A stretch of DNA of 64,000 nt, from the NCBI GenBank assembly GCA_040218735.1, contig JAVJQW010000022.1, positions 139,901 through 203,900 on the forward strand, written 5' to 3'. Numbering within the stretch: the stretch's first letter is position 1; each line of letters begins with the position of its first letter. Below the pieces are notes generated by a model. That model searched no databases. It was not told the DNA's origin and worked only from the letters and a program-made list of their open reading frames with translations. Below, in pieces: positions 3,352 through 56,209 of this stretch. The stretch comes from Deltaproteobacteria bacterium (GTDB lineage: Bacteria > Myxococcota > Kuafuiibacteriia > Kuafuiibacteriales > Kuafuiibacteriaceae). A program made the position numbers and the translations under genes.

Positions 3352-3359
3352 ATCACGCT

Positions 3360-3383
3360 CGCGCGGGGCGTCCGCCCCGCGCG
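3360..3383. terminator. Hairpin between convergent genes
   Basis: Perfect 11-bp inverted repeat CGCGCGGGGCG-TC-CGCCCCGCGCG; no U-tract. Confidence 0.55.
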
Positions 3384-3698: not shown

Positions 3699-3738
3699 GC
3701 CCCTTAACTAGCGACAACGACCCGGCGAGACAACGAAA

Positions 3739-4323
3739 TCAGGGCACGAGGGCGACGCAGGCGAGCGCGGTCATGACACCGCCGATCGCGGAGCCCAGGA
3801 GCGTCTCGAGCGGGGTGTGATTCTCGGTCCGAACGCGCGCCCACGCGACGATGGGGACGAGCACGAAGAGGGGCGCGGCGGTGAGGCCGTAGACCCACGT
3901 CGCGGAGGTCGCGACGCCCATCAGGCCGGCGCAGTGAATCGAGGGCTTCACGGTGCGGTTGAAGGCGAACAACGCGAGCGTGACCCCGAGCGCCGCCCAG
4001 CACATCGCGGTCGCGAGGGGAAAGGGGTACACCCAGGTGAAGATCGCGGCGGCGACGGCGAGCGAAATCGCCGCGACCGGGTAGAGGAAGCGCCGGTTCT
4101 CACGGCGCACCAGGTAGAGGTCGTCGCCGAGCCAGCCCAGCCGAAACGCGAGGCCCGTCGTGGCGAGCGGGAGCACCACGCAGACGCCGGTCACGAGCGC
4201 GGCGATGGACCAGAGCCGGGCCGTGAGGCCGCCTTCGTGCTCGATCGCCGCGTACAGCGCGACGAAGAACCCCGGCACGACCGGGTGGAAAACCAGCGCG
4301 AGGACGCGCGCGAAGGACCTCAC
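3739..4323 (-). CDS. Polytopic membrane protein, PAP2-superfamily-like
   Basis: About 6 hydrophobic segments; KPSIHCAG and WARV..ENHTP motifs. Confidence 0.7.
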   Translation of the reverse strand: MRSFARVLALVFHPVVPGFFVALYAAIEHEGGLTARLWSIAALVTGVCVVLPLATTGLAFRLGWLGDDLYLVRRENRRFLYPVAAISLAVAAAIFTWVYPFPLATAMCWAALGVTLALFAFNRTVKPSIHCAGLMGVATSATWVYGLTAAPLFVLVPIVAWARVRTENHTPLETLLGSAIGGVMTALACVALVP

Positions 4324-5306: not shown

Positions 5307-5307
5307 G

Positions 5308-6435: not shown

Positions 6436-7196
6436 GTCTTCTTCTTCGCTCGGGTGAGCTCGGCGTACGCCTTCACGACGTCGGGGATGTCGCCCTGCGT
6501 GACGACCTCACCGCGCTCCAGGAGGATCATCCGCGTGCAGAGGCGCTTCAGCTCCTCCATGTTGTGCGAGACGATCACCACGGTGGCGTCCTCGTCCTTC
6601 ACCATCTCCTCGATGCGGTTCACGGAGCGCTGCCGGAACGCGGCGTCGCCCACGGCGAGGGCTTCGTCGATCAGCAGGATCTCCGGCTTCACGGCGGCGG
6701 CCACCGAGAACCCGAGGCGCGCGCGCATGCCGGAGGAGTAGGTGCGCAGCGGCTGGTGGATGAACTCGTCGAGGTCGGCGAACTCCACGATCTTGTCGGC
6801 GAGCTGCTCCATCTCCTCGGGGGCGTAGCCGCTGATCGCGCCGGAGAGTTTGATGTTCTCGTAGCCGGTGAGCTCGTCGCGGAAGCCCGCGCCCAGCTCG
6901 AGGAGCGAGGAGATGCGGCCCTTCGTCTCGACGTGCCCCTTGTCGGGCTCGTAGATGCCGCACACCACGCGCAACAGCGTGCTCTTCCCCGAGCCGTTGC
7001 GACCGACGAGGCCGATCACCTCGCCGCGCTGCACTTCGAACGACACGCCGTTGAGCGCCCAGAAGTCGCGCTTGCGGTCGGGGTGGCGGCGCCCGGTGAC
7101 GAGCTCGAGGAACGCCTCCTTCACGCCGCGCGCGCGGTAGCGGACGATCGGGAAGGAGAGGTGCACGTCCTCGACGGTGATGACCGCGGTGCTCAC
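6432..7196 (-). CDS. wzt: Polysaccharide ABC exporter, ATP-binding subunit
   Basis: GRNGSGKST, YSSGMRARLGFS, ILLIDEALAVGD. True start is probably GTG 7196, overlapping the wzm stop; the track ORF to 7868 is an overextension. Confidence 0.92.
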   Translation of the reverse strand: MSTAVITVEDVHLSFPIVRYRARGVKEAFLELVTGRRHPDRKRDFWALNGVSFEVQRGEVIGLVGRNGSGKSTLLRVVCGIYEPDKGHVETKGRISSLLELGAGFRDELTGYENIKLSGAISGYAPEEMEQLADKIVEFADLDEFIHQPLRTYSSGMRARLGFSVAAAVKPEILLIDEALAVGDAAFRQRSVNRIEEMVKDEDATVVIVSHNMEELKRLCTRMILLERGEVVTQGDIPDVVKAYAELTRAKKKT

Positions 7197-40885: not shown

Positions 40886-43516
40886 ATGGCCCTCACGTTT
40901 TCTCTGAACGGACACCAGCGCACCGTGGAGGACGTCCCCCAGGGGTCGTCGCTCCTGAACGTGTTGCGCGAGGATCTGGGCCCCGACCGGACCATCTCGC
41001 TCAAGGACGGGTGCGCGCCGCAGGGGCAGTGCGGGTGCTGTCTGGTGTTGATCGACGGCAAGCCGCAGGTGTCGTGCGCGATGCCGGCCGAGAAGGTCGA
41101 CGGCAAGTCGCTGCTGACGCTCGAGGGTGTGCCGCACGAGGAGAAGCGCCTGTACGGCGAGGCGTTCGCGCGCACCGGCGGGTTGCAGTGTGGTTTCTGC
41201 ATCCCGGGCATCGTGCTGCGGGCGAAACACGTCCTCGACAACAACCCGAACCCGACCGACGCGGAGCTCAGGAAGAAGCTCGACGTCCACCTGTGCCGGT
41301 GCACCGGCTACCAGCGGATCATCGAGGCGATTCAGCTGGTGGCGGCGGTGAAGCGCGGGGAGGCGATGCCGCCCGCGGACACGTCGGGGAAGGTCGGGAC
41401 GAACCTGGATCGGTACGAGGGGATCGAGCTCGCGCTCGGCGAGCGGCCGTACGTCGACGACATGTACCCGGAGGGGATGCTGCACGGCGCGGTGCGGTTG
41501 TCGGATCACGCGCGGGCGCGCGTGGTGAAGATCGACGCGACGAAGGCGCTCGCGATGCCCGGCGTGGAGCGCGTGGTGACCTACAAGGACGTGCCGGGGG
41601 ATCGGTTCTACGGGCTGATCGTCCCGGACTGGCCGGGGTTCATCGCGGAGGGCGAGGTCACGCACTGCGTGGGGAGCTTCATCGCGGCGGTGGCGGCGGA
41701 TGACCTACGCACGGCGCGTGCGGCGGCGGCGGCGATCGAGATCGAGTACGAGGTGCTGGAGCCGGTGTTGGATCCGGAGAAGGCGCTCGAAGAGGACGCA
41801 CCGAAGGTGCACCGGCGCGGGAACAAACTGTCGCACTCGCGCATCGAGCGCGGCGATGTGGAGAAGGCGCTCGCGGAGGCGACGCACGTCGCGACGGGGG
41901 TCTACGAGACGCAGCGCATCGAGCACGGTTACCTCGAGCCGGAGAGCGCGCTGGTGGTGCCGCAGGACGGCGGGACGCTGAAGCTCTACTCGCAGGGGCA
42001 GGGCATCTTCGACGACCAGCGGCAGGTGGCTTCGTTCCTCGACATGTCGACGGACCAGGTGCAGGTCGCGCTGGTCCCGAACGGCGGTGCGTTCGGCGGC
42101 AAGGAGGACATGTCCGTGCAGCCGCATGCTGCCTTGCTCGCGAAGGTGACGGGCAAGCCGGTGAAGGTGACGTTGACGCGCGAGCAGTCGATCCGCGTGC
42201 ACCCGAAGCGGCACCCGATCAAGATGTATTACACGGCAGGGTGTGATGCGGACGGTCGAATCCTCGCGATCAAGGCGAAGATGATCGGTGACACCGGCGC
42301 GTACGCGAGCGTGGGCGCGAAGGTGTTGGAGCGCGCGGGTGGGCACGCGTGCGGGCCGTACCGCGTGGACAACGTGTTGGTGGAGGCGACGGCGGCGTAC
42401 ACGAACAACCCGCCGGCCGGGGCGATGCGTGGGTTCGGTGCGAACCAGGCGAACTTCGGGTTGGAGTCGATCATCGATCAGCTCGCGGAGAAGTGCGGCA
42501 AGGACAAGTGGCAGTTCCGCTACGACAACGCGGTGCAGGTCGGGGACATCTTCTCGACGGGGCAGGTGCTGGAGAAGTCGGTCGGGATCAAGAAGACACT
42601 CGAAGCGGTGAAGCCGCACTACGACGACGCCAAGGCGCGCGGGCGCGCGGTGGGGCTCGGGTGTGGGATCAAGAACAGCGGTATCGGCAACGGCGCGTCG
42701 GAGTGGGGCAAGTGCCGGCTGGTCGTCGAGGACGACGGGACGATCTCGCTCTACAACGGCTACACGGAGATGGGTCAGGGGCTCCTGACGATCCTGATTC
42801 AGTTCGCGTGTGACGTGACGGGGCTGTCGCCGGATCTGTTCCGCGCGAAGGTGGACACGACGTTTGCTTTGCAGTGCGGTCAGACGACGGGCTCGCGTGC
42901 GACGTTGTTCGGCGGCAACGCGGTGATCCTCGCGGCGGAGGACATGAAGAAGGCGCTCGAGGCGGTGAACGGGGACTTGGATCAGTTGAAGGGGCGCGTG
43001 TTCGTCGGTGAGTTCCTGTGTAACGACACGGTGCCGCTCGGGGCGCCGGTGGAGAATCCGAAGACACACACCGCGTTCGGGTACGCGACGCAGCTGGTGA
43101 TCCTCGACGAGAAGGGTCAGCTGGAGAAGGTCGTCGCGGCGCACGACGTCGGCAAGGCGATCAACCCGGTGTTGTGCAGCGGGCAGATCGAGGGGTCGCT
43201 GCACATGGGGCTCGGGTACGCGCTGTCCGAGGAGCTGCCGTGCGGTGACGACGGGATGCCCGAGAACATGACGATGCGTGGCCTTGGGATCCTGCGCGCG
43301 CGGCACACGCCGCCGATGGAGATCATCTTGGTCGAGGAGCACGAGCCGGAGGGGCCGTACGGTGCGAAGGGCGTCGGGGAGATCGGCTTGGTGCCGACGG
43401 CCGGCGCGGTGCAGGGTGCGTTGTACGACTTCGACGGCGAGCGCCGCTACGTGCTGCCGATGAAGACGTCGCCGGCGGCGGCGCCGATCGTGGGGCGCCG
43501 CGCTTCGAAGCGATGA
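40886..43516 (+). CDS. Molybdopterin oxidoreductase with fused 2x[2Fe-2S] domain; selenium-dependent xanthine dehydrogenase-like
   Basis: GC...GQCGCC, QCGFC.PG, LCRCTGY; GGAFGGK, AMRGFG, EMGQG, TTGSR, AKGVGEIG. Confidence 0.9.
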   Translation: MALTFSLNGHQRTVEDVPQGSSLLNVLREDLGPDRTISLKDGCAPQGQCGCCLVLIDGKPQVSCAMPAEKVDGKSLLTLEGVPHEEKRLYGEAFARTGGLQCGFCIPGIVLRAKHVLDNNPNPTDAELRKKLDVHLCRCTGYQRIIEAIQLVAAVKRGEAMPPADTSGKVGTNLDRYEGIELALGERPYVDDMYPEGMLHGAVRLSDHARARVVKIDATKALAMPGVERVVTYKDVPGDRFYGLIVPDWPGFIAEGEVTHCVGSFIAAVAADDLRTARAAAAAIEIEYEVLEPVLDPEKALEEDAPKVHRRGNKLSHSRIERGDVEKALAEATHVATGVYETQRIEHGYLEPESALVVPQDGGTLKLYSQGQGIFDDQRQVASFLDMSTDQVQVALVPNGGAFGGKEDMSVQPHAALLAKVTGKPVKVTLTREQSIRVHPKRHPIKMYYTAGCDADGRILAIKAKMIGDTGAYASVGAKVLERAGGHACGPYRVDNVLVEATAAYTNNPPAGAMRGFGANQANFGLESIIDQLAEKCGKDKWQFRYDNAVQVGDIFSTGQVLEKSVGIKKTLEAVKPHYDDAKARGRAVGLGCGIKNSGIGNGASEWGKCRLVVEDDGTISLYNGYTEMGQGLLTILIQFACDVTGLSPDLFRAKVDTTFALQCGQTTGSRATLFGGNAVILAAEDMKKALEAVNGDLDQLKGRVFVGEFLCNDTVPLGAPVENPKTHTAFGYATQLVILDEKGQLEKVVAAHDVGKAINPVLCSGQIEGSLHMGLGYALSEELPCGDDGMPENMTMRGLGILRARHTPPMEIILVEEHEPEGPYGAKGVGEIGLVPTAGAVQGALYDFDGERRYVLPMKTSPAAAPIVGRRASKR

Positions 43517-44154
43517 GCACGTACCGCTCGGCGCTGCTCGCGGGAGCGGAGGCGATGGGGTTGGCGATCTCGGACGAGGTCGCGGACGGGCTGGCGGTGC
43601 ACCACGCGCTCGTCGAGAAGTGGGCGAAGAAGATCAACCTGACGACCGTGGTCGAGCCGACGCGGGCGGCGTCGGTGCACGGGTTGGACTCGCTGCTGTT
43701 CGCGGAGCTGGTGGAGGACGACGGGGGTGTCACGGTGGATGTGGGATCCGGCGGCGGGTTCCCGGGGATCGCGGTGGCGTTGATGCGGCCTTCGCTTTCA
43801 CTGGTGTTGCTGGAGCCGATTCGGAAGCGTGCTTCTTTTCTGCGCACGGTGTTGGCGGAGCTGGGGCTGAAGCAGGTGCGCGTGGTGGAGGGGAAGCTGG
43901 AAGCGGCGCCTTTGCCGGGGCGTATCGCGTGGCCGGTGGACCGGATCGTGTCGCGGGCGACGATCCCGCCGGTGGAGCTGGCGACGCGGGCGGTGAAGCA
44001 CTTGCGGCCGGGTGGGGTGCTGGTGTTGTCGGGGGGGGCGGGGGCGCCTTCGGTGGAGGCGTTGGCGGCGTCGGGGTTGGTGCACGAGGAGCGGCGTAGG
44101 TATGCGCTGCCGGGTGGCGAAGGGCGGGTGCTCGATCGGCTCCGGGCGCAGTAA
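43513..44154 (+). CDS. rsmG: 16S rRNA m7G527 methyltransferase
   Basis: KWAKKINLT, H.LDSL, DVGSGGGFPGI, LLEPIRKRASFL, VSRA. Confidence 0.92.
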   Translation: MSTYRSALLAGAEAMGLAISDEVADGLAVHHALVEKWAKKINLTTVVEPTRAASVHGLDSLLFAELVEDDGGVTVDVGSGGGFPGIAVALMRPSLSLVLLEPIRKRASFLRTVLAELGLKQVRVVEGKLEAAPLPGRIAWPVDRIVSRATIPPVELATRAVKHLRPGGVLVLSGGAGAPSVEALAASGLVHEERRRYALPGGEGRVLDRLRAQ

Positions 44155-44171: not shown

Positions 44172-45227
44172 TCATTCTCCGTCGTCTCGAGGAGAACGTC
44201 GGGCTTGAACGCCAACGATCGCGTCCTCGCTACGGCTCGTTCGGAGGGGCTGGGTCGTGAGGATCGCTCCGTCTTCAGTCGTTTCACACCGAACGACCGC
44301 GCTCCCATTTTCTGCCGAGCGGCCAATGAGCTCGTACCCATTCTCGTGACTGAGAACATCTGCCCGCTGGAGTGGGCAGTTCGCTCGCTCAACTCGGGAG
44401 GTGATCTCGCCGGTCGAGATATCGATGACGAACAGAGACTGCGGACTCCATACCCAGGCGATGCGATCGTCCGAGGCGACGGCAACGAAATGCACGTCCT
44501 CGGAGAACGAGATGATCTCTCGGGCCCGTATCTCGTCGTTCTGGACCTCGAGCACCTGAACCCCCGGGCGGTTCGAGAGCGGGACCAGGATGCGGCTGGA
44601 CCCCATCGACGGCATTCCGAGCCGATCGTCGGTCGTCCACGCGTCCAACCGCCGCCATTCGGTCCCCGAGCGCCAGAGCTCGACTCGGCCAAACGCCGAG
44701 CCGACCAGGACATCTCTGCCCACCTGAGGTGTCTGCAGGAAGTCCGGCCCGGTGAGCATGACACCGGTGTCGAAGACCTCGTCCCGAGCCTGGATGAGCG
44801 AGCGACCGCTGACCTCGTAGGTGCGCACGCGCTGACCGAACGTGGAGATGACCAGGGGAGATCCGCTTGCATCGACGGTACACGCCTCGATGTCGATGTC
44901 CTCGATCGGCGCACTCACGCTCGTGAGCGTTGCGGTCGATGCTTCGAACACACGAACGCGGCGGTCCTTGGCGTACGTACACGTGAACTCGCCTCGCAGT
45001 CCGAGCCCCCACCGCTCGAGCGCCCGGTTTGTGTTGGACGCGAACAGCCGGCGCCCAGCGTCAGCGGCGCCATCACGTCCGAGCGCAACCAGCTCGATGT
45101 CGGAGTCGGTCCAGCGGACCGCGACGAGCGCCTCGTCGCGACCGGAGGCCGCGTCGCCGGTACACGCGACCATCGACAGTCCGAGGGCGACGAGGCCGCC
45201 GCGGAGGCGTCTACCGTCCGTGCACAA
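44172..45227 (-). CDS. Hypothetical lipoprotein, beta-propeller-like
   Basis: LVALGLSMVAC lipobox; beta-rich; start uncertain. Confidence 0.55.
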   Translation of the reverse strand: MCTDGRRLRGGLVALGLSMVACTGDAASGRDEALVAVRWTDSDIELVALGRDGAADAGRRLFASNTNRALERWGLGLRGEFTCTYAKDRRVRVFEASTATLTSVSAPIEDIDIEACTVDASGSPLVISTFGQRVRTYEVSGRSLIQARDEVFDTGVMLTGPDFLQTPQVGRDVLVGSAFGRVELWRSGTEWRRLDAWTTDDRLGMPSMGSSRILVPLSNRPGVQVLEVQNDEIRAREIISFSEDVHFVAVASDDRIAWVWSPQSLFVIDISTGEITSRVERANCPLQRADVLSHENGYELIGRSAENGSAVVRCETTEDGAILTTQPLRTSRSEDAIVGVQARRSPRDDGE

Positions 45228-45352
45228 GGTACTGCCAATTTAGTCGAGCCCACCCCACCGTGTCTCGGACCGGCGTCCTGACGCCGCCGACGCGCGTCGT
45301 GGATCGGCTGCGGTGGGCGTGAGCCGGGGCCTCGCCGTGGTATCTTCGTTTC

Positions 45353-45568
45353 GTGGAAGCCGACGCTCGCGAGCGCCGGGCGATAGCCCAGCGCGAGGCC
45401 AACGCGCGGGCCGCCGCCCGCGGTGAGCCGCTTCCGTTTCCCAACCCCTGGGACACGCTCGACCCGACGAAGGTCGGCCCCGACGCGACGCCCGAGGAGA
45501 TCACGGCGAGCTACCGGGAGTTTCGTAGGCGATGTCGGACGAAGACGAGGCGGCAGCTTACACTTTAG
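45353..45568 (+). CDS. Small hypothetical protein
   Basis: 71 aa, GC3-biased, PLPFPNPWD motif. Confidence 0.45.
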   Translation: MEADARERRAIAQREANARAAARGEPLPFPNPWDTLDPTKVGPDATPEEITASYREFRRRCRTKTRRQLTL

Positions 45569-45736
45569 ACCATGACGACGCTCCGCTTCGCGGACCGTCT
45601 TGGCACAGCCGTCTGACCGACCGCTTCGCGCTCGGACTCCGTCTAGAAGCGTTCGTCGAGGTGCTGCGGCGCCGGTCCCCATCGCCGACCCATTCGAGCT
45701 CCTTCGGAACAAGCTCGCGAACCGTGCGCTCTAGCG

Positions 45737-46615
45737 CTACTGAAGCTCCGCCTTGGTGACGAGCTTCTTGAGAACTTCGTTTCTGTCGTCGGTCATGACG
45801 AGCTCCTCCATGTCGGAACGATCGACGAGCACCAGACGAAGTCCATGCGTTCGCTTGGTCCGAGCCACGTCGTAGACCGGACCTGTGAACCCCCCTGCGG
45901 CAAAGAAGAACCCGAGCGCACCGGGTCGGTCCTGCACTTTCGTGGCGAACCATCCGACCTCAGGGGTACCGACGGACTTGGTCCAGTTCTTCGCCTCGCA
46001 CAGGATGAACGCGGGTTGCTTGGACCAGAACGGGTCCGTCGATTCGTTGCGGATCGCGACGTCGAGCTCTTCGGCCGGCGTGCGCAGGTTGCGCCCCGCT
46101 TCGAGGAGTCCGGGCACCGAGGTCATGAACATCAGAATGAGCTCTTCGAGACGCCGACCCTTCGCGTGCGCCGAGCCCTCCCCGAGCTTCGACCACAGCT
46201 GGCGGATCAGCGCGTCCGCGACGGGGCGACCGCGCTGTTGGGCGCGCACGGTCTCTCGGATCTGGCTCAGCTTTGCGGTCAGCAGCGTCGGGAGTAGCGG
46301 GTCCTTGACGAGGTAGTCGTAGGCGCCGCCGCGGAACGCGCGGCGGATCGAACCTTCGTCCGCGAATCCTGTCACGAGCAGAACCTTGGCCGTGGAGAAG
46401 CGCGCGGACTCCAGAAGATCGACGCCGTCATCGGGACCCGATCCGCCCTGGAGACGTTTGTCGAGCAGGACGACGTCGAAGTCGCCGGTCTCCCACGTCG
46501 CCTTTGCCTCCGCGCTCGACCCGACGATCGTGCCCACGTAACCCTCGTCGGCGAGGATCTCGGCGTACGTCTCCTGCATCGCAGGATCATCTTCCACGAC
46601 CAGCACGTTGAGCAT
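45737..46615 (-). CDS. Response regulator (REC) fused to an Mrr-like PD-(D/E)xK restriction endonuclease domain
   Basis: REC: VLVVEDD, DVVLLD (phospho-Asp), VTG, YLVK. Nuclease: KGRRLEE, EELDVAI, LCEAKNW..VG, GFFFA..GFT. ATG 46615 lies 10 nt after the kinase stop. Confidence 0.88.
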   Translation of the reverse strand: MLNVLVVEDDPAMQETYAEILADEGYVGTIVGSSAEAKATWETGDFDVVLLDKRLQGGSGPDDGVDLLESARFSTAKVLLVTGFADEGSIRRAFRGGAYDYLVKDPLLPTLLTAKLSQIRETVRAQQRGRPVADALIRQLWSKLGEGSAHAKGRRLEELILMFMTSVPGLLEAGRNLRTPAEELDVAIRNESTDPFWSKQPAFILCEAKNWTKSVGTPEVGWFATKVQDRPGALGFFFAAGGFTGPVYDVARTKRTHGLRLVLVDRSDMEELVMTDDRNEVLKKLVTKAELQ

Positions 46616-46625
46616 GATGGCTACC

Positions 46626-48170
46626 TTACGCCGTCGGCAGCTCGAGGACGAACCTCGCACCACCCAGGCCTGACTCTTCCACTCTCACGGTTCCGCGGTA
46701 CTCGCCACACACGACCTCTTGAAGGAGTGCGAGCCCCTGCCCGGTGCCGTCCGGCACCGTGCTGAACCCTCGCTCGAACACGCGGGTCCGAAGGTCGGGG
46801 TCGACCCCGCGGCCGTCGTCGTCGACGTGAATCACCACGGTGCTGTCCGTCCGATGGCCGGAGACGACGACCGCGACTCGTCCGTCGGGTCGACCGTGGC
46901 GCCGGGCGTTTCGAATGACCTCGGCGAGCGCGTGTACGAGTCGGAGCCTTTGACCGTGGAGCTCCGTCCCGCGGATGGCGTCGAGCGATCGTCCCACGTC
47001 GGAGCCGTTGGCGATCGCGATCGCGTCCTCGACGACCGCGGCCGCATCGAACGTTTGTGGAGGCGATTGGGAGCTCCCGTAGAGCGCGACGAGATCTTCC
47101 ACGAGCTTGAAGGCGCGCTTCACGCCGGTTCGCGCTCGCGCGAGACGCTGGGTTTCGGTCTCGCTCCAGTCGGGCGCGGAGGTCATCTGGTCGAGCGCGA
47201 AGTTTGCTGGGCCCAGCGCGTTCCTGAGCCCGTGCGCCATTGTCTCGACCACCCATTCGGCCGCCCGTCGCTCGGTTCCGGGCACCACGCTCGAGTCGTC
47301 CATGCGCGCCGCCGACGCCTGTTCGAGGAGTGCGCCAAGCACGGCTTGGGCGGGATGGTCGCCGGAGCGGAGCTCCTCGAGGAGGGCCAGCCCTTCCGGC
47401 CAGACTTCGTACTGTTGGAGTTCGGGGTCTGAACTCGTCCACAGGAGCCCCAACCGTTCGAGTCGAAGAATCGACGTCCAGGCGTACGGAAACCATGGCC
47501 CCTCCTCCGCGTCCAGGCCGCCCTGCCAAACGACCATTTGCGGGGTAGCGATGAGGTGCTCGATGGTCGCTCGACTCAATCGCCACGCGTCCTTTGCGCC
47601 GGTTGACTGCAGAAGCTCGTTCGTGAGGATCCAGCGGACGGCATCGCGTCCGGTGAGTCGCGTCAGAACACGTCCTGCCGCGGTCGTGATACCGCGATCC
47701 ATGATGCCGACCTCTTCCGCGTACCGCAGAACGTCGGTGTCTTCGCTCCACTGGTTGACCGTCTGGAGCGCCGCCTCGATCACGGACCACTGGAGTCCAT
47801 CCGGAGGCTCCACGGGCAGGTTGAGCAGAGCGCGCAGGGCGGCGTCGAGGAACCTACGGGCTTCGGCTGGCGCTTCGACGCCCGCGGCCAGGATGCGCCG
47901 GTATACCCTCCGCAGGACGGCCCGCCTCGGTCCCGGGCCCAGCCACTCACGAACGAGGTTCGCGCGCACCTCACTGGGGTCCGGAGGAACGAAGAGCGCA
48001 TTCATGTGCTCTTCCTGCTGCGCTTGCCGAGCCAAGGCGACTCGCTCTTCGACCCCCGCCGTGACTTGCGCGCGGTAGTCGGCCGGCGGCATCACGTCGT
48101 CGAAGTTCGGCCACGCTGTCGTCCGGTGTAGCCCGTCGCGTAGCGCGGATTGCAGCTCGTCCAGCCACAC
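46626..48170 (-). CDS. Soluble histidine kinase with winged-helix-like N-terminal region
   Basis: H-box AHGLRNAL, N-box EVIRNARRHG, G1 DDDGRG, F VFERGFST, G2 GTGQGL, GARF; no TM. Start uncertain (GTG 48170 or ATG 48005); the track ORF to 49001 is antisense to the next gene. Confidence 0.85.
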   Translation of the reverse strand: MWLDELQSALRDGLHRTTAWPNFDDVMPPADYRAQVTAGVEERVALARQAQQEEHMNALFVPPDPSEVRANLVREWLGPGPRRAVLRRVYRRILAAGVEAPAEARRFLDAALRALLNLPVEPPDGLQWSVIEAALQTVNQWSEDTDVLRYAEEVGIMDRGITTAAGRVLTRLTGRDAVRWILTNELLQSTGAKDAWRLSRATIEHLIATPQMVVWQGGLDAEEGPWFPYAWTSILRLERLGLLWTSSDPELQQYEVWPEGLALLEELRSGDHPAQAVLGALLEQASAARMDDSSVVPGTERRAAEWVVETMAHGLRNALGPANFALDQMTSAPDWSETETQRLARARTGVKRAFKLVEDLVALYGSSQSPPQTFDAAAVVEDAIAIANGSDVGRSLDAIRGTELHGQRLRLVHALAEVIRNARRHGRPDGRVAVVVSGHRTDSTVVIHVDDDGRGVDPDLRTRVFERGFSTVPDGTGQGLALLQEVVCGEYRGTVRVEESGLGGARFVLELPTA

Positions 48171-48278
48171 GAGGCGGACGCTACCGCCGCCTGGGGGGAG
48201 AGGCCAGCACTCGAGCGTAGGACTTGCCCTCGCGGTCAGTTGCGCGCGCGCCGGGTCCGGCGGGATTCTCCCCGGTCT

Positions 48279-49076
48279 ATGGCACTCAAAGATCTCACCA
48301 TCGAATCCATGGTCACCATCGTCGGGGCGTGGGTCGACGCGAAGCGCGACCGGCCGGTGATCGAGAAGTATCCGAAGCTGGCGCCGTTCCTCCCGGACCT
48401 CGGCGGGTTGCAAGATGCCTTGCTCTCGGCGGGGCATCGCGAGCCCTCGAATACGTCGGAGGAGCTCGAGCGCGTGCGCGCGGAGCTCAAGGAGCTGGAC
48501 CGCCGGCACGACGCGGTCGTGCGCGGCATCGACCAGGTGCTCGCGGGGCTGTCGCAGCTCGCGGCGAAGGAGTCCACGGCGTCGACGCTGGAGCGCCTGC
48601 GCGAGACGTTGCTCCCGGAGGGCCGGCGCGTGGTCACGTGGAGTATGCGACGGCAGGGCGGCGCCGCGGAGCGCGCGGCCTCGCGGCTGACGTCGGCCCA
48701 GAAGAAGGCGCTGCGCGAGATGAAGATCCCGGGCGGGACGCTGATGGGCTTCTTCAACGAGCGCGTGACGCTCGCGCGGAAGTTGGTCGAGCTGGACCGC
48801 CAGCGCGTCGCGCTGTTGGCGGCCCTGGACGGCGACGGACCGACGATCGCGAACTACGACGCGACGCTGAAGTTCGTGCGCACCGTGGGGTTGTTCGTGT
48901 CGATCGCCGAGGTGAGCGACATGGAGGACGCGGACCGGGAGCGGTTGCTCGGCGACCTGGAGGCGGCGCTGGAGAACGCGGAGGCGCGGCGGTCGGCGCA
49001 CGTGGAGCGGGCGATCGAGGAGGCGCTGGAGGACCTGGACGCGTCGGCGGAGGCCCAGCCGGCGGGGGATGCTTAG
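48279..49076 (+). CDS. Helical hypothetical protein
   Basis: From ATG 48279: MALKDLTIESMVTIVGAWV...; host-like codons; 265 aa. Confidence 0.75.
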   Translation: MALKDLTIESMVTIVGAWVDAKRDRPVIEKYPKLAPFLPDLGGLQDALLSAGHREPSNTSEELERVRAELKELDRRHDAVVRGIDQVLAGLSQLAAKESTASTLERLRETLLPEGRRVVTWSMRRQGGAAERAASRLTSAQKKALREMKIPGGTLMGFFNERVTLARKLVELDRQRVALLAALDGDGPTIANYDATLKFVRTVGLFVSIAEVSDMEDADRERLLGDLEAALENAEARRSAHVERAIEEALEDLDASAEAQPAGDA

Positions 49077-49082
49077 CCGGGG

Positions 49083-49319
49083 TCAGCCTGCTTGTCGAAG
49101 ATGAAAGACCGGGGCGGTTGCGATCGGCTTCCGTCCGCCGTCCTGAAGTAGTCGTTCGATCCGTTCGACCGTCTCCGGCTCGAACTCCACGTCGCCACAG
49201 CTGTCGCAGACGAGCGCCGGGACGTCGTCGATGACGATCAGCTCGCCACCAGGTCGAACGGTGTGGGGCACGAGCTTGCGGTCGTAGGCTCCCGGACAAT
49301 CGTTGATAGAGCACTTCAT
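49083..49319 (-). CDS. YgiT-type zinc finger protein (MqsA-like antitoxin domain)
   Basis: MKCSINDC...LIVIDDVPALVCDSCGDVEF.PETVERIERLL; 78 aa. Confidence 0.85.
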   Translation of the reverse strand: MKCSINDCPGAYDRKLVPHTVRPGGELIVIDDVPALVCDSCGDVEFEPETVERIERLLQDGGRKPIATAPVFHLRQAG

Positions 49320-49390
49320 CTGCGACCTCGCTGCGTTGGCGTCAACCACTTCGGAGCGGAGGGTACAACGACGCGACGCTGTGGTTCGCG
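49316..49390 (-). pseudogene. 3' remnant of a DUF4258-like toxin gene
   Basis: Reads ...VVVPSAPKWLTPTQRGRR*, whose TGA overlaps the YgiT ATG (ATGA); no start upstream. Confidence 0.55.
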
Positions 49391-49596
49391 CGGCGCCGAG
49401 GTGAGCGAGATGGAGGGCGCGGACCGGGACCGCGTGCTCTCGGACCTGGAGTCGGCGCTGGAGAACGCGGAGGCGCGGCGGTCGGCGCAGGTGGAGCGGG
49501 CGATCGTGTAGGGGTTGGAGGACCTGGAGGCTTCCGTGGAGGCCCAGCCGCCGGATGATCGGTTGGCAGCGCCTTAGCGGGTGCCGTGAAAGGGGG

Positions 49597-49730
49597 TTCG
49601 GAGGCTGTGACAGGCTCAAGATTGGGTTTGAAATCCGATTTGGAGTCTGTCGGAGGGTCGAGATTGGGTTTGAAACCCGATTCGGAGGCTCTCGGAGGGT
49701 CGGATCTGGGTTTGAAACCGGATTTGGAGC
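49597..49730. repeat. 42-bp tandem repeat, about 3 units, palindromic core GGGTTT-G-AAACCC
   Basis: Units start at 49616, 49658 and 49700; partial unit from 49597. Confidence 0.85.
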
Positions 49731-50072
49731 CTACGCGGACTCGACTTCGGCCTCGCCGACGCGCGCCTCCAGGTCGCCGAGGGTGTCGCGCATCTGTTCG
49801 CGTGCGGACTCAAGGACCCGTCGCTCGACCTGGTCCTGGACGACCGCCAGTGGCACCAGGCGGCTGTCCCGCGATCCTTGATGCTCCTGGATGGTTCGAT
49901 TGGCTCAGCGACTCGAGGCGTTTGGGCATCCTATCCGCCCGGTGAGCCGCCGGCTTGGCTCGCGAGTCGCTTCTTCGCGGATACGGCCGCTGCCCTCGCT
50001 TCTGCATCGCGCAGGCGCTACCCGTGGGCGATCAGCCTGTCATGGGGGCTCGGGCGAGCACGTCTCGCCACC

Positions 50073-50174
50073 TTTGCCGATGAAGTCCGCGCAGCCTTCG
50101 TGGAGTGTGCGCCAGAAGCGCTCTATCTTGCCCTCGGCTGTGGCTTTTTAGGGCCGCGTGTGGATGAGCGTGAG
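50073..50174 (-). pseudogene. DDE integrase/transposase (rve, IS481/Mu-like) relic
   Basis: Manual translation LTLIHTRP*KATAEGKIERFWRTLHEGCADFIGK; TAA at 50148-50150. Confidence 0.7.
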
Positions 50175-50337
50175 GTCAGGCGAGTACGCACCTCGCGCGT
50201 GTATGAATGTGGCCGCCAGTGCCCAGCCGTTTCCTCTTTCCATCGGGCACCGGAACGCTTCATCCGGACCGCCACGAGGCTTCCAGGTTGCCTCCATGTT
50301 GTTGGACCAGGAGGCCCAGGGCGGTGATGCGGTCGGC

Positions 50338-53300
50338 TCAGACCGCGAGCACCTCGACGACCTCGGCGATGACGCGCAGCTCGTCGGGATCTGCGGAGGT
50401 GAAAGTCAGGGGCTCGAACTCCGGGTTCGCGGGCCGGAGCACGATGCGCTTCGCACCGTCGGATCCCTGCTCTTCCCTGTAGAGCTTGATGGTGTACTGG
50501 CCGCCGGTGTCGGGATCGGTGGGCCCCGCGTGGCGCACGAGGACGGGGCGCTCGGGAGAGGATGGGAGGGAGACGCGGCGGAAGAGGCAGTAGGCTCCGT
50601 CGGGGATGGTGGGCTCCATCGACCGGCCGGTGACCTGGGCGACGAACATGCCCCGTGCGAGGGGCTTGGCTGCGCTCGGGGTCACCCATTCGAGGCTGTC
50701 GTCATCGAGATCGGGGACGTCTTCCTGGAGCTCGCTCCAGGCGGTTGCCGCGATCTCGAACTCGATCAGCGGCACACAGGTACTGTAGCGCTCCTGCGAC
50801 GCGGGCTCGACCCGGCGGAACGGAAGCACCTTCGCGGCGCCACCAGTCGGCTCGGCCTCGTCGAGGAGGTCGAGGGCCGGGAGGCTCTGCACCAGCTTCA
50901 GCGTCTCGAGGCTCACGGTGATCACCCGGAGCAGGAGGGAGAGCGGGTAGCGTGGGTCGCCCATGGTCTCGGTGGCCCAGGCGTTGGCGTCCTTCTCGAT
51001 GCCGCTCGCTTTGTCCGTGGTGACGCTCTGGCACTTCATCACCCACCCTATCGCGGGCTTGCCGTTGACGACGTAGTCATACGCCTCCAGGGGGATGTCG
51101 CGGACGGTGATGAAGTCATTGTAGTGGATAACGGTCTTGTCCTTGCCCTTCCCGAACCGCATCTTCTCGACCCGGTAATGGTTGGCGGTGCGGCTGGCCG
51201 ACTCTTCGACCTTGGCCTTGTACTCGGGCACCTTCTCGTAGCCGACGTGCAGCTCGCCCAGGGTGCGGCCGGCCTTGCTGAAGGCCCAGAAGTCTGCAGC
51301 GGTCCTCACGCGAGGGATGCGCGGAAGCTCCTTGCCAAGGTTGTCGGCGTAGCGAGTGCGGTAATCCGGGGCGTGTAGGATGCCGTAGACGTAATAGAAT
51401 AGGTCTTCCTTGGTGATGGGCTCACCCGGGTAGGCGGACTGGAAGTGGGCGAGGCCGGCGTCGGTGATGCCGTCGCGGCGAGTGGTAGCGGCTGAAGGCT
51501 TGTTTGGGGCGGGGAACATTGCGCCAGCCCCATCAGCTTCCTCCGGACCGGTGTCGGCGGAATCGTAGACGAAAAGCGGGAAGTACTGAGATCCAACCAT
51601 ATCCGTCGCATGCAGGCTCGGGACAACATCTGCCATCATCACCGAGAAGGCGCTTCGCGACTCGCCAGCGGTGACCCCGATGACGCGGTTTGCCACGTCA
51701 ACGCGAGGAAAGAGGCGTGGCATCTGGTAGACCATCTCGTTGAGCTTGCGGTCGAAGTATAGCCAGCGGCGCGAGAAGGGTCGGTACAAGCTCGGCACTA
51801 TACGCATTGCGTCGAAGCGCAGCCGTCCTCCCTTCGCAAATTCGTTCTTAAGGGCTCTCGTCCAGGAGATCTTCGAAGGGTCTGTGTCTATGAAACCTTT
51901 GAGCAGTCCTTTCCGCCCCTTCTTGTGGAGCTCGCGATGGGCGCCATCGAAGCGAGACAGCTCCGCGTTGTAGAACCTGATCATATTGCCCATGTTGTGG
52001 CTGAGGCCGGGTTTCGATGGGTTCGAAGCCCACGCATCGCGATTCGTAACCACGCCTAGCGAGAACATTGAGAAGACGCGGGCCGAGGACTCCTCCTTGT
52101 CCTTGATACCTGCAGCAATATGAACGCGAAAGCTCTCGTCACGCTGCTTGAGCCAGTCGCCGTGCTGGTCAGGCGATACGAGGATCCAACCTTCCGCTTC
52201 ACTGATGCCTCCCACGCTGGCGAGATCAGTAACCGCAGCGAGCTTTTTCTCACGACTTAGGTAGGCCCCTATGTCGCGAAAGTAGATCTGAGCGTGTTCC
52301 TTGATGTTAGGGTTCTTTACCAAAAGCGAGATTGCGACTGGCGCGCGGCTACCGCTTCCGAAGACTTTCCCGCCTTCCTTCTTTGAGCGTTCGCCAGCCG
52401 TTCGCTGATTGCCGCGTAAATGAAACACGTACAGGCTGCTGAATTCCTCGGCGAGGCACTTACGCAGGCCGTCGAATGTCGGGGCTTCAACGAAGCCCGC
52501 GTTGGTCACGAACCCAACAATCCCACTATTGCCGACACGATCGCTCGCCCAGCGGATAGCACGGACGTAGCTGTCATAAAGCCCTTTGGAAAGCTTGGCG
52601 TCAGATCGATCAACATAAGACTGAGCGATGCGTCGGTCGAGCTTCGGATATTCGATGTTCGCGTTGTTGTCGTTCTCACTGTTCTGGCCCACCGAGTACG
52701 GTGGATTCCCGACAATTACCCGGATATCGAGCTTCTTCTGTCGCACTCGCCGCGCGCTGTTATCCACCAGGACCCGCGATACCAGATCGTCCTTCTCGTA
52801 CAACTGGAACGTATCGGTCAGACAGATCCCCTCGAACGGCTTGTATGCACCACCAACGACACCGTGGTACGCCGCCTCGATGTTGATCGCCGCGATGTAA
52901 TACGCCAGCAGCACGATCTCATTCCCGTGGATCTCCTTCGCGTATTTCCGCGGCAGCTCCTCAGTCGAGATCAGCCCGCTTTGGATCAGCCGCGTGATGA
53001 ATGTGCCCGTGCCGGTGAACGGGTCGAGGATGTGCACGCCCTCGCTGCCGAGCGTCTGTCCAAACTCAGTCTTGAGCAGATGGTCGACGCTGTTGAGGAT
53101 GAAATCGACGATCTCGACCGGTGTGTAGACGATGCCGAGGCGCTCGGACATCTTCGGGAAGGCGTTTCGAAAGAACTTGTCGTACAGCTCAACGACGATC
53201 TTTTGCTTCCCCTCCGCGCTCTCGATGCCCGAGGCTCGCATCTTGACCGACTCGTAGAACGCCTCGAGGGTGCGCGACTCCTTCTCTAGGTGGTGCTCGT

Positions 53301-55791
53301 GAAGGGTATCGAGCACGCCCTGCATCGCGCGGGACATCGAGTTCTCGGAGGCGAAGCTCTGGCCGGAGAATAGCGCGTCGAAGACCGGTTTGGTGACCAG
53401 GTGCTGGGCGAGCATCTCGACGATCTCGTCCCTACTGATGCTGTCGTTCAAGTCGTCTCGCAGCTCCGCGGCGAAGCGGTCGAACGCCTCGCGCTCCTTG
53501 GCGTTGGCCGGGTTCTCGAGGATGCCGGTGATCCGGTCGATGTGGGTCCGAGCGATCTTGGCGATGTCCTTCGCCCACTCCTCCCAGTGCTGGCGGTTGC
53601 CGACCTTCTGGACGAGCTTTGCGTAGATCGCACGCTCGATCTCGCCGATCTCGAACTCCAGCTCCCGCTGCTCGGGCTTCTGGAGGTTCTGGGCGGCGCC
53701 GATGGTGCGACCGCCCTTGGCCGCCTGTTTCGCCGCCTCCTTCTTCCTCCCTTCGCCCTTCTTGGTCTTTGACCGCCGTGTTAGCTTGTCGGTGACGGCG
53801 ACGACCTCCATCTTGGCGGGGTCCCTCGCGTCGAGGTCGAGCTTGTTGATCATCGCGTCGAAGCGATCGTCGTGGGACCGGAGCGCCTGGAGCACCTGCC
53901 AGACCACCCTGTAGGTGCGGTTGTCGTTGAGCGCCTCGTGGGGCTCGACTCCCGCCGGGATCACCACGGGGAGCACGATGTAGCCGCGCGCCTTGCCCGG
54001 TGCGTTGCGCATGACGCGGCCGACCGACTGCACCACGTCAACCTGCGAGCTCCTCGGTGTAAGGAAGAGTACCGCGTCAAGGGCCGGCACGTCCACGCCC
54101 TCGGAGAGGCAGCGCACGTTGCTCAGGATGCGGCAGGTGTCGGCGTCGGTGCTCGCCTTGAGCCAGGCGATCTTTGCCTCCTTCTGCGAGGCGTTCATGC
54201 TGCCATCAACGTGCGCCGCCTCGCAGCGGAGAACCGGATGATGACCGGCCTCCTCCTCGCTCTCACTCTCCTGGTATGCCTCGACTACCGCCTGGAACAT
54301 CTCGGCGATGTTCTTGGAGCTGACCTTGTGGACCTTGGCGCTCTTCCGACGCTCGATCACCTGGCAGAATGCGACCGCGCGCTTCATCGGCCCGCGATCG
54401 CCGGGGAGCTCCTCGGCCAGGCCTTTCTTGGCCAGCGCCTTCCAGCACCCGACAATCTTTGCCGCATCGTCGACCCGGAGTTCGTTGTTCTCGTCCTTGA
54501 GCAGGCTCTGGAGTCGCCGGCTCACGTGCTTCTCCTCGACCGCCAGCACCACCACCTTGTAGTCGACTAACAGGCCGCGCTTCACCGCCTCAGAGAAGGT
54601 GAGCACGTAGAGGTTCGGCCCGAAGCGCGCCTCGTCGTCCATCGAGTAGATCGCCACGTTGTCGCGCTCAGCGGTGGCCTTGGCCGCGTCACCGAAGATA
54701 CGCGGGGTCGCGGTCATGTAGAGGCGCTTCTTGCCGCGCAGAAAGACCGGGTCGTGCACCTTCACGAAGTGGCTCTCGTCCTCGCCCTCGTACGTAGACC
54801 CGGTGGTGCGGTGCGCCTCGTCGCAGACGATTAGGTCGAACTCCGGGACCCCGTGTTCTTGCTGGGCGAGGTGGAGTACCTCGATCGAGTGGTAGGTCGC
54901 GAAGACCACGGTCATGTGCTCGGCGTCGTGCCGCTTCTTCATCTCGCGGGCGAGGCGACTCGGGTCGGTGGTTGCCGGGTACTGTAGCTCGTGGACGAAG
55001 GTCTGGACGGTGTCGTCGTCCTTTCTCCGCTTCTTGCCCACGTCGCTGTCCGAGCACACCGCGAAGCTCTGGAGCCGGAGGGTGCTCTCCTGGGTCCACT
55101 CGGTGAGGCTCTGGGAAAGCAAGGCGAGGCTCGGCACCAGAAACAGCACCCGCTGACCCGGCCCCGCTTGTTCCTCGGCGATCTTCAGGCTCGTGAACGT
55201 CTTGCCGGTGCCACAGGCCATGATCAGCTTACCGCGGTCTCGGTCTTTCAGCGCCGCCACGACCAGCTCGATGGCGGTGCGCTGATGGGGGCGCGGGTCT
55301 TTCTTGCCGCGCAGGGCTGGCGCCTTCTTCGGCGCGAAGCTCGACCAGTCGACGAGACTCCCTTCCAGCGCGGCGAGGTCGATCTTGGTGACGGGCGTTT
55401 GCTGATCGAGCAGCGCGGCCTCGGCGTGGTCACTCCAGAGGTTGGTGGTGCTGACGATGATCCGGCGCGCAAATGGCTTCTTGCCCGAGGCGGTGAAGAA
55501 ACTGTCGATATCATTCTTCTGGACCTTGTGGCTCGCCGGGTAGAGCTTGCACTGGATCGCGTGGACCTCATCGGTGACCGTCTCGGCAACCAGATCGATC
55601 CCGACGTCCCGCTTGTCCTGCCCGTGTCGCCCAGCCCACGTCGCGTAGGGAACGATGTCGCGGTACAGCTCGCGATATGCCGGCTCGTTCTTGAAGTAGG
55701 CGACGATGAGCTCCTCGAAGTATGTCCCCGCCTCGCGGTTGGTCACGGCAGAGGATCGGTACTGGTCAAGCAGCGTCTGGAGGGCGGTCAC
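50338..55791 (-). CDS. Type ISP (LlaGI/LlaBIII-like) single-polypeptide RM enzyme with C-terminal S24 (LexA-like) domain
   Basis: Nuclease GIDLVA..AIQCK; helicase MACGTGKT, DEAH, TATP, QSVGRVMR; MTase LDPFTGTGTF, NPPY; TRD; S24 GRSMEP...TIK. Start GTG 55791 or 55806. Confidence 0.93.
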   Translation of the reverse strand: MTALQTLLDQYRSSAVTNREAGTYFEELIVAYFKNEPAYRELYRDIVPYATWAGRHGQDKRDVGIDLVAETVTDEVHAIQCKLYPASHKVQKNDIDSFFTASGKKPFARRIIVSTTNLWSDHAEAALLDQQTPVTKIDLAALEGSLVDWSSFAPKKAPALRGKKDPRPHQRTAIELVVAALKDRDRGKLIMACGTGKTFTSLKIAEEQAGPGQRVLFLVPSLALLSQSLTEWTQESTLRLQSFAVCSDSDVGKKRRKDDDTVQTFVHELQYPATTDPSRLAREMKKRHDAEHMTVVFATYHSIEVLHLAQQEHGVPEFDLIVCDEAHRTTGSTYEGEDESHFVKVHDPVFLRGKKRLYMTATPRIFGDAAKATAERDNVAIYSMDDEARFGPNLYVLTFSEAVKRGLLVDYKVVVLAVEEKHVSRRLQSLLKDENNELRVDDAAKIVGCWKALAKKGLAEELPGDRGPMKRAVAFCQVIERRKSAKVHKVSSKNIAEMFQAVVEAYQESESEEEAGHHPVLRCEAAHVDGSMNASQKEAKIAWLKASTDADTCRILSNVRCLSEGVDVPALDAVLFLTPRSSQVDVVQSVGRVMRNAPGKARGYIVLPVVIPAGVEPHEALNDNRTYRVVWQVLQALRSHDDRFDAMINKLDLDARDPAKMEVVAVTDKLTRRSKTKKGEGRKKEAAKQAAKGGRTIGAAQNLQKPEQRELEFEIGEIERAIYAKLVQKVGNRQHWEEWAKDIAKIARTHIDRITGILENPANAKEREAFDRFAAELRDDLNDSISRDEIVEMLAQHLVTKPVFDALFSGQSFASENSMSRAMQGVLDTLHEHHLEKESRTLEAFYESVKMRASGIESAEGKQKIVVELYDKFFRNAFPKMSERLGIVYTPVEIVDFILNSVDHLLKTEFGQTLGSEGVHILDPFTGTGTFITRLIQSGLISTEELPRKYAKEIHGNEIVLLAYYIAAINIEAAYHGVVGGAYKPFEGICLTDTFQLYEKDDLVSRVLVDNSARRVRQKKLDIRVIVGNPPYSVGQNSENDNNANIEYPKLDRRIAQSYVDRSDAKLSKGLYDSYVRAIRWASDRVGNSGIVGFVTNAGFVEAPTFDGLRKCLAEEFSSLYVFHLRGNQRTAGERSKKEGGKVFGSGSRAPVAISLLVKNPNIKEHAQIYFRDIGAYLSREKKLAAVTDLASVGGISEAEGWILVSPDQHGDWLKQRDESFRVHIAAGIKDKEESSARVFSMFSLGVVTNRDAWASNPSKPGLSHNMGNMIRFYNAELSRFDGAHRELHKKGRKGLLKGFIDTDPSKISWTRALKNEFAKGGRLRFDAMRIVPSLYRPFSRRWLYFDRKLNEMVYQMPRLFPRVDVANRVIGVTAGESRSAFSVMMADVVPSLHATDMVGSQYFPLFVYDSADTGPEEADGAGAMFPAPNKPSAATTRRDGITDAGLAHFQSAYPGEPITKEDLFYYVYGILHAPDYRTRYADNLGKELPRIPRVRTAADFWAFSKAGRTLGELHVGYEKVPEYKAKVEESASRTANHYRVEKMRFGKGKDKTVIHYNDFITVRDIPLEAYDYVVNGKPAIGWVMKCQSVTTDKASGIEKDANAWATETMGDPRYPLSLLLRVITVSLETLKLVQSLPALDLLDEAEPTGGAAKVLPFRRVEPASQERYSTCVPLIEFEIAATAWSELQEDVPDLDDDSLEWVTPSAAKPLARGMFVAQVTGRSMEPTIPDGAYCLFRRVSLPSSPERPVLVRHAGPTDPDTGGQYTIKLYREEQGSDGAKRIVLRPANPEFEPLTFTSADPDELRVIAEVVEVLAV

Positions 55792-56016
55792 GCGCCTACT
55801 TGGCACGCGTAAGAGCTGGCCTGCAAGGTCCGGGAACGATGGGATTCTGCATCGGGCGATTGCCTCAAGCGCTCGGCGCAGGCCTTCGTCATTCGATCGG
55901 AGGTCCAGGGCGCCTGCCGCAAGGTTGAGCGTGATCTCTCGCTCAGCGCGTGGTGCCGAATCACCAGCGCCAGCAGTTGCTCGTGCGTCGCGCCCAGACG
56001 CGCTTCAGCGTGTGCT

Positions 56017-56136
56017 GTGATATCCCGGCGATCTGCAGTCGGCCACATCCAACGAGGCTTCGAGCTGGCGGTCGATATCCATGCGGGCCGCCGCCTCGGG
56101 GGCGATGTTACCGGTCGTGGGTGGGGCCCGGCTCAT
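56017..56136 (-). pseudogene. Type I RM HsdR N-terminal relic
   Basis: MSRAPPTTGNIAPEAAARMDIDRQLEAS, then a frameshift to W...DRRDI; resembles the HsdR start PExxARxxIDxxLxxxGWxxQD. Confidence 0.55.
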
Positions 56137-56209
56137 GCAGAGGGCTCAGAGATCCCACATCAGGCGGCTCGGGCTCAAGCTCCCGGTTTTTGTTTCTGAT
56201 ACCTGGCTG

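Follow-up and report, generated by a model that had tools for sequence, protein, structure and literature searches.

In a 64,000-nucleotide stretch of the genome of a Deltaproteobacteria bacterium (Myxococcota, Kuafuiibacteriaceae; GenBank assembly GCA_040218735.1, contig JAVJQW010000022.1, positions 139,901 to 203,900 of the forward strand), hereafter called the window, two adjacent genes encode a histidine kinase and a response regulator whose receiver domain (REC) is joined to an Mrr-type nuclease domain in the place of the usual DNA-binding output. This locus therefore raises the question of whether a phosphorelay controls the cutting of DNA in this organism and, if it does, which process would be served by it. 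The answer that we suggest is that the unit belongs to a two-gene family kept across many myxobacteria, which probably cuts DNA only on the signal of its kinase. Judging from the domains and the conserved residues, a phosphorelay-gated nuclease as such appears likely; the chance that its biological role is defence or conflict is about even or slightly better; and to the whole proposal, namely a phosphorelay-gated nuclease serving defence or conflict, we give a probability of roughly 0.55.

The regulator (P0001) is the part of the unit where the signal and the presumed cutting activity meet. It matches Response_reg with an expectation value (E) of 4e-16 and Mrr_cat (PF04471) with 29.8 bits against a curated gathering score of 21, and no other Pfam family at E<=1. 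All the residues of a working receiver, that is, the acidic pocket, the phospho-accepting Asp, the Thr/Ser and the Lys, are present in the regulator, and they are widely kept in its relatives, with D9, D52, and K104 found in 54/54 aligned regulators and T82 in 53/54. In parallel, 53 of these 54 regulators retain the nuclease residues E157, D185, E207, and K209, and the sole miss is a gap belonging to a truncated copy. Built from 46 sequences, a profile of the C-terminal domain aligns to residues 198–280 of EcoKMrr, the Type IV methyl-directed restriction enzyme of E. coli K-12 (b4351), with an hhalign probability of 89% and an E of 2.3e-6, and it pairs D185 with D203, E207 with Q217, and K209 with K219. 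This profile alignment makes the nuclease domain a homologue of the catalytic domain of EcoKMrr. For the full-length regulator, the AlphaFold2 model, with a predicted local distance difference test (pLDDT) of 85 and a predicted template-modelling score (pTM) of 0.80, places E157 in a helix, D185 at the start of a strand, and E207-x-K209 in another strand, in an alpha-beta-beta-beta-alpha-beta order that fits the PD-(D/E)xK core.

Outside the family, this nuclease domain has its nearest relatives in stand-alone proteins of about 175 aa and in fusions with other domains, namely NACHT-HEAT-Mrr_cat (L062), HEPN_Toprim_N-Mrr_cat (L069), AP2-Mrr_cat (L071), and HSDR_N-Mrr_cat (L074 and L076). In several of these fusions, Mrr_cat, from the closest clade with 33–38% identity, is the terminal effector behind a sensor. 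The L062 example (positions 2782–6486, in a metagenome-assembled genome of Blastocatellia) is a 1235-aa NACHT-HEAT-repeat protein ending in Mrr_cat, i.e., it resembles an NLR and has a nuclease as its effector. A search for the nuclease part in longer, fused forms gave none, which is weak evidence.

The kinase (P0002) also has what is classically expected of a two-component kinase, namely a phospho-accepting His in the DHp region and an ATP-binding domain with its N, G1, F, and G2 boxes. Besides the strong HATPase_c match, Pfam gives a weak HisKA match at residues 308–362 (E 0.039) and no family in residues 1–300, and the boxes can be read directly as H313, N421, D450–G455 (G1), about F465/F469 (F), and G475–G479 (G2). 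The phospho-accepting His is present in 37/37 aligned kinases; the residue following it (codons 47229–47234) is Glu in 35/37 and Gly in the window copy and in its closest relative, L001, and the same His-Gly pair was also read in 4/95 wider kinase representatives. The protein has no membrane segment by hydropathy, its top Kyte–Doolittle 19-residue mean being 0.87. Its GTG start is supported by an N-terminus in register with the N-termini of 36 homologues, and its TAA stop codon (46626–46628) is followed by 10 nt and then by the ATG of the regulator. The initial annotation of this stretch, made from the sequence and its open reading frames (ORFs), had described a two-gene unit with a 10-nt gap, a kinase lacking transmembrane segments and having complete boxes, and a regulator with an intact phospho-site and an Mrr-like nuclease output with its catalytic residues in place; this whole observation is confirmed by the same-strand ORFs and by the domain and residue evidence given above. 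The coordinates of all these features are collected in Table 1.

Table 1. Features of the two-gene unit, in window coordinates
Feature	Position	Strand	Basis or detail
Histidine kinase gene	46626..48170	-	514 aa (P0002), GTG start, soluble; ORF and translation
Kinase sensor domain, residues 1-298	47277..48170	-	AlphaFold2 model, invariant columns, weak winged-helix matches
Canonical winged helix in sensor, residues 196-270	47361..47585	-	
Phospho-accepting His313 codon, H-box A-H-G-L-R-N-A-L	47232..47234	-	H in 37/37 aligned kinases
HATPase_c domain, residues 407-513, N/G1/F/G2 boxes	46632..46952	-	Pfam E 3e-18
Spacer of 10 nt, kinase stop to regulator start	46616..46625	.	Read from sequence
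Response regulator gene	45737..46615	-	292 aa (P0001), ATG start, REC + Mrr_cat; translation, Pfam
REC domain, residues 4-106	46298..46606	-	Phospho-acceptor D52 codon 46460-46462
Mrr_cat PD-(D/E)xK nuclease domain, residues 178-272	45800..46084	-	Pfam, hhalign, conserved residues
Mrr_cat residue codons	D185 46061-46063; E207 45995-45997; K209 45989-45991	-	
Intergenic region shared with divergent gene, presumed operon promoter region	48171..48278	.	Gene coordinates

A simple scan of the presumed promoter region found no sigma-70-like site, and the promoter and terminator scan was uninformative.

That both genes belong together, as the initial annotation had supposed, is evident from their relatives. 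A search of 5.8 billion proteins gave 19 full-length regulator homologues with 39–72% identity, 17 of which carry a precomputed PF04471 match, and a scan of one genome per species gave 79 loci, 57 of them with a near-full-length REC-Mrr regulator, almost all in Myxococcota (Sorangium, Polyangium, Chondromyces, Corallococcus, Archangium, Hyalangium, Pyxidicoccus, Haliangium, Nannocystis, Enhygromyxa, and Kofleriaceae), a number that includes near-duplicates such as seven Polyangium loci. In 53 of the 56 loci with upstream DNA, a kinase gene lies directly upstream of the regulator on the same strand. For 52 of them, this means that a tblastn match to the C-terminal half of the kinase ends <=150 nt from the regulator start on that strand, and L052 was counted as the 53rd, given that its upstream gene is a kinase by its Pfam HATPase_c and N-domain matches; at the other three loci (L011, L018, and L043), no kinase was found. 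With the kinase adjacent in so many related loci, the pairing is far beyond chance, and in many relatives the two genes even overlap by 4 nt. A comparison of 64 related loci revealed no third gene recurring beyond synteny within genera, and the other genes of the window have no relatives there. At L013, the N-terminal part of the kinase is unaligned and a type III restriction-modification (R-M) pair lies directly upstream.

The distribution of the family is patchy, even within families and genera. Among the sampled genomes of the phylum, 34/401 carry it at E<=1e-35 (G000 included), a figure that is a lower bound because six candidates per genome were scored; these comprise 30/172 in family f9 and, besides G000, 2/19 in the family of the window's organism, with 0/67 and 0/21 in two other families. 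In a tree of 53 regulators, families are mixed within several well-supported clades, and the window copy stands with L001 as a divergent pair. Several of the clades are paralogous, some genomes carry 2–3 copies, and apparently decayed copies exist as well, the regulator being split into two ORFs in L024 (Sorangium cellulosum So0157-2) and L072.

The question of what the kinase may sense leads to its N-terminal domain (residues 1–298), for which AlphaFold2 gives a confident model (pLDDT 90.1, pTM 0.83; 37-sequence alignment). The model consists of a helical bundle at about residues 1–145, a conserved core at about 146–195 in which Y150, G166, W180, and E185 are invariant, and a winged helix at about 196–270, built from helices 200–208, 216–219, and 231–239 and strands 211–215, 243–247, and 251–256. 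The initial annotation had marked two winged-helix segments here, of which the second is borne out by this model and by weak matches to MarR and PadR proteins, and the first (residues 147–166) is a helix plus a hairpin which alone forms no clear winged helix. A Foldseek search of the model against the PDB returned nothing at E<=0.001, the weak rows above this cut-off being winged-helix proteins (MarR, PadR, eS10, SqrR, and TubR); the sensor profile matched sequences of solved structures weakly, with MarR 2rdp at E 0.008 (residues 198–282) and PadR 4ejo at E 0.02, and the ESM Atlas gave no usable match for the sensor. The family of this domain has 358 cluster representatives at E<=1e-3 (296 at E<=1e-10), and among the 150 matches listed of these 358, on which all architecture counts rest, 120 have a length of >=440 aa and bear the domain N-terminally; HATPase_c is present in 93 of the 95 long representatives scanned, and another output in none. 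One of these 95 has a weak DUF3322 match in the sensor region (E 4e-4), a domain which we take to be the N-terminal domain of Wadjet JetD-type proteins. The net charge of the sensor is acidic in 37/37 homologues (median -11, range -18 to -3), and for its winged-helix segment the net charge is positive in 2/37 only, the other 35 being negative or neutral. Because of this general acidity, direct DNA sensing by the kinase, which the initial annotation had proposed, is doubtful, and the cue would more readily be a protein or a small molecule than DNA.

The mechanism that we propose is, accordingly with these parts, a simple one. The soluble cytoplasmic kinase would detect an intracellular cue, likelier a protein or a small ligand than DNA, by means of its N-terminal helical and winged-helix domain, and would then autophosphorylate on H313 and pass the phosphate to D52 of the regulator, as we infer from the established chemistry of two-component systems. 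Phosphorylation would pair two receivers through their alpha4-beta5-alpha5 faces, and this pairing would bring together or release two Mrr-type PD-(D/E)xK domains, which may then cut DNA. A homodimer prediction of the regulator gave an interface score (ipSAE) of 0.45 as the median of 3 runs, against 0.00 for the best control, a mark which in calibration was reached by 20/30 solved pairs and by 1/23 single chains; the runs have >=45% of their contacts in common, with a partner pLDDT >=80, and the predicted interface is formed by residues 85–118, that is, by the alpha4-beta5-alpha5 face. Given that this face is common in solved receiver dimers, the prediction may simply echo them and is to be taken as likeness, not as binding.

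A kinase-gated REC-nuclease design is already proposed for some anti-phage systems in two preprints, so it is necessary to ask whether the unit is one of these. According to the first preprint (Rousset et al., bioRxiv 10.1101/2023.01.24.525353), Detocs (DtcA/DtcB/DtcC) is a validated defensive two-component system whose kinase senses infection and phosphorylates a REC-effector, and in which His or Asp mutants abolish defence; the main effector is a PNP ATP nucleosidase, minority effectors are a restriction endonuclease (PF18742), TOPRIM, and transmembrane ones, and the authors' detection rule needs all three genes, including a stand-alone 'buffer' receiver. Detocs shares with the present family a REC-effector in the place of the usual DNA-binding output and a kinase partner, but it has three genes and a kinase with tetratricopeptide repeats (TPRs), whereas the family described here has two genes, a helical plus winged-helix sensor, and an Mrr_cat effector. 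No third gene of the dtcB type was found in the operon, and none is conserved in the related loci, so that such a gene was considered and rejected; extra REC matches in the flanks belong to sigma-54 activators. In the kinase, Pfam gives no TPR family at E<=1, and the structural matches listed contain no TPR protein; residues 1–145, which are helical, might be distantly related to such repeats. The kinase has no match in PADLOC-DB 2.0.0, a library whose Detocs content is unconfirmed.

In the second preprint (Gu et al., bioRxiv 10.1101/2023.08.10.552793), Type 1F Shedu is described as a REC-DUF4263 protein often found beside a histidine kinase, a prediction from 39 instances, and its activation via phosphorylation-induced pairing is proposed. 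The likeness to our regulator lies in the N-terminal receiver fused to a nuclease of the PD-(D/E)xK superfamily and in the adjacent kinase gene, but the Shedu nuclease is DUF4263 and the one studied here is Mrr_cat, with no DUF4263 match in Pfam at E<=1. EcoKMrr has the homologous catalytic domain with D, E/Q, and K aligned, but it is one polypeptide with its own N-terminal DNA-binding domain, a position occupied here by REC, and since neither protein of the unit has a Pfam match to Mrr_N, the unit is not a whole Mrr enzyme. The NLR-like and other sensor-Mrr_cat fusions, such as the NACHT-HEAT-Mrr_cat of L062, bear the closest clade of the nuclease domain as a terminal effector, as the regulator does, but they unite sensor and effector in one protein with an NTPase switch, whereas the present family would rely on phosphotransfer between two proteins. 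In the literature, a description of a REC-Mrr_cat regulator was not found, the supplementary tables of the Detocs and Shedu preprints, which might list related operons, being outside this scope; a survey of myxobacterial two-component systems (PMC4603909) mentions neither Mrr nor a nuclease, and a paper on conflict systems (PMC7159879) has Mrr-like effectors together with receiver domains only in vWA-MoxR systems without kinases.

The two genes sit between rsmG (43513–44154) and a gene for a Type ISP restriction-modification enzyme (50338–55806, minus strand), which lies 2.2 kb from the unit and matches the PADLOC model REase_MTase_IIG with an E of 0; the same interval also holds a lipoprotein-like gene, a divergent gene (48279–49076), and a small zinc-finger gene (49083–49319). 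The GC content is 0.60–0.67 over 44–56 kb versus 0.68–0.71 on either side, and that of the third codon positions (GC3) is 0.81 in the regulator versus 0.88–0.94 in the flanking housekeeping genes. In the congeneric genome G108, which is 75% complete, no copy of the regulator was detected; rsmG is followed there by 3.6 kb encoding L28, S18, and an LppC-like protein, and both this stretch and the 5 kb before the DUF1552 gene are unlike the window at 44.2–56.2 kb. Positions 44172–56200 of the window, where GC and GC3 are both below those of the flanks, form a variable region. An insertion with clean borders was also considered and is not demonstrable, as the fragmentation of the G108 assembly hides whether the two flanks adjoin each other there.

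Other elements of the window deserve a brief description. The Type ISP enzyme has 1822 aa and comprises Mrr_cat_2, ResIII/helicase, ISP coupler, N6_Mtase, and Type_ISP_C domains, followed by an extra C-terminal Peptidase_S24 (LexA-like) domain at residues 1679–1817 (E 4.9e-8), which is an add-on, given that the PADLOC IIG model stops at about residue 1644; it may act as a regulatory tail of the restriction enzyme, either self-cleaving or responsive to RecA. A 166-nt direct repeat with 87% identity (48905–49070 and 49394–49559) copies the 3' end of the divergent gene and brackets the zinc-finger gene, which is YokU-like and of antitoxin type, and it looks like an insertion or recombination scar. 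Three tandem 42-nt units with 73–77% identity occupy positions 49587–49732, in the gap before the Type ISP gene. Further away, a gene on the minus strand (32399–34927) encodes an 842-aa protein that combines a MalT-like TPR region with a CHAT protease domain at its C-terminus, an architecture typical of conflict systems, and it is adjoined by a gene for a trypsin-CARDB protein (35576–37570).

Coming now to the explanations that compete with the proposed phosphorelay-gated nuclease, the unit had been interpreted in the initial annotation as an Mrr enzyme split by a phosphorelay, in which the winged helix of the kinase binds foreign or modified DNA and so switches the nuclease on. This interpretation is partly supported, being right on the architecture and the gating logic, but the split-enzyme idea with its DNA sensor is improbable, since the sensor profile shows no similarity to EcoKMrr (hhalign probability 0.4%), a generic winged-helix fold is all that they have in common, and the sensor is acidic throughout the family. 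In the same annotation no characterised system of this architecture was known, a statement that finds no support in view of what the two preprints say of validated Detocs with its restriction-endonuclease variants and of the predicted Type 1F Shedu. Could the unit then be a Detocs subtype with a nuclease effector, or a Type 1F Shedu? Both have the logic of a kinase and a REC-effector in common with it, nuclease variants and an adjacent kinase are on record as cited above, and one PADLOC SduA model even matches residues 3–63 of the regulator (E 2.8e-4). That match is, however, confined to the REC part, the effector is Mrr_cat and neither PF18742 nor DUF4263, the kinase has no detected TPR, and a stand-alone receiver gene is missing both here and, as a conserved gene, in the related loci, so we consider this assignment highly improbable. 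Compared by sequence and gene content with the available descriptions, the family appears to match neither system, and PADLOC-DB 2.0.0, the novelty check that had been suggested, names no system for the pair. Finally, DNA binding is what most response regulators do, and a PD-(D/E)xK fold can be taken into service for binding alone, so that the Mrr_cat domain might be a non-cutting output of an ordinary transcription regulator. This, too, we regard as highly improbable, because the four nuclease residues are retained in all but one of the copies, across identities of about 33–72% to the window protein, and they align with the catalytic residues of EcoKMrr.

If the unit is indeed a phosphorelay-gated nuclease, its likeliest role would be in conflict, i.e., defence against phages or mobile elements, perhaps through abortive infection, in line with Detocs and with the proposal made for REC-type Shedu. 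In favour of it are the effector-type fusions (NACHT, HEPN_Toprim_N, AP2, and HSDR_N) among the nearest relatives of the nuclease domain, the patchy distribution with paralogous clades, and the lower-GC stretch beside the Type ISP enzyme. Several results weigh in the other direction, against the proposal as a whole. The Gly in the place of the acidic residue after His313 might weaken the kinase chemistry. Structure searches with the whole regulator (Foldseek pdb, VIA wide) returned receiver-domain matches only and so did not confirm the nuclease fold, though receiver domains filled these lists and left the searches uninformative on the C-terminal domain, and the profile of that domain found nothing at E<=1 among PDB sequences. 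No family members were found in viral contigs, where 3 REC-only matches appeared, or in plasmids, where 0/160 matching records cover 80% of the protein. The neighbours in other loci, sampled as two genes on each side of 36 non-redundant loci (139 proteins, all of them run against PADLOC and the first 69 against Pfam) with a home-made GC3-based gene-calling routine that reproduces the window's genes, which makes a rough test having no background set, are mainly housekeeping by Pfam (PrmA/RsmE, RF3, GlmU-like, RibA, pyruvate kinase, pseudouridine synthase, and UreD). PADLOC placed a specific defence model within two genes in 4/36 loci only, namely L013 (type III R-M plus PDC-S03), L028 (PtuB), L038 (NsnA), and L032 (PDC-S09), the remaining matches being generic (Ser/Thr kinases, methyltransferases, OmpA, sigma-54 activators, and cyclases), and the neighbourhood is conserved within genera, e.g., in Polyangium, which suggests long residence. 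The family is thus not a resident of defence islands and the window copy is an exception; the defence island of the initial annotation stands for this window and not for the family. There is some room for a lineage-specific cellular device other than immunity, i.e., a kinase-controlled nuclease in myxobacterial physiology, which might for instance degrade DNA in developmental lysis or programmed cell death, or process damaged DNA. This would agree with a family nearly confined to Myxococcota, with mostly housekeeping neighbours in a context stable within genera, with no phage or plasmid copies found, and with no clear enrichment of defence genes nearby. Against such a device, which we hold to be rather unlikely, stand the presence in just 30/172 genomes of family f9 and the lack of a match in the one congeneric genome (75% complete), the several divergent paralogues and decayed copies, the NACHT- or HEPN-type conflict architectures of the nearest nuclease relatives, and the variable, lower-GC stretch beside a restriction enzyme in which the window copy lies.

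Keeping the phosphorelay-gated conflict nuclease as the preferred explanation, we tentatively suggest, as a possibility short of an even chance, that the family represents a module for immunity or suicide in social bacteria that has so far gone unnamed. A dedicated cytoplasmic kinase, its sensor fold being exclusive to the family in this view, would directly recognise a phage- or stress-derived molecule, and phosphorylation-driven pairing would license a chromosome-cutting Mrr-type nuclease. The module could then be a second, independent invention of two-component immunity, made without the buffer protein or the TPR sensor of Detocs and diversified in Myxococcota into several paralogous specificities.

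Since the general idea is already in print, the gain offered by this unit lies in a new family and a new sensor and not in a new principle. If our proposal is true, the unit would illustrate phosphorelay-gated DNA cleavage in a compact form of two genes, with a sensor domain for which no relatives have been described, and it would make two questions testable, namely what a cytoplasmic histidine kinase recognises in infection or stress, and whether the pairing of receivers is enough to arm a PD-(D/E)xK nuclease. Two-component immunity, validated so far for Detocs in Proteobacteria only, would also be extended to the Myxococcota, a phylum whose defence repertoire has been little studied.

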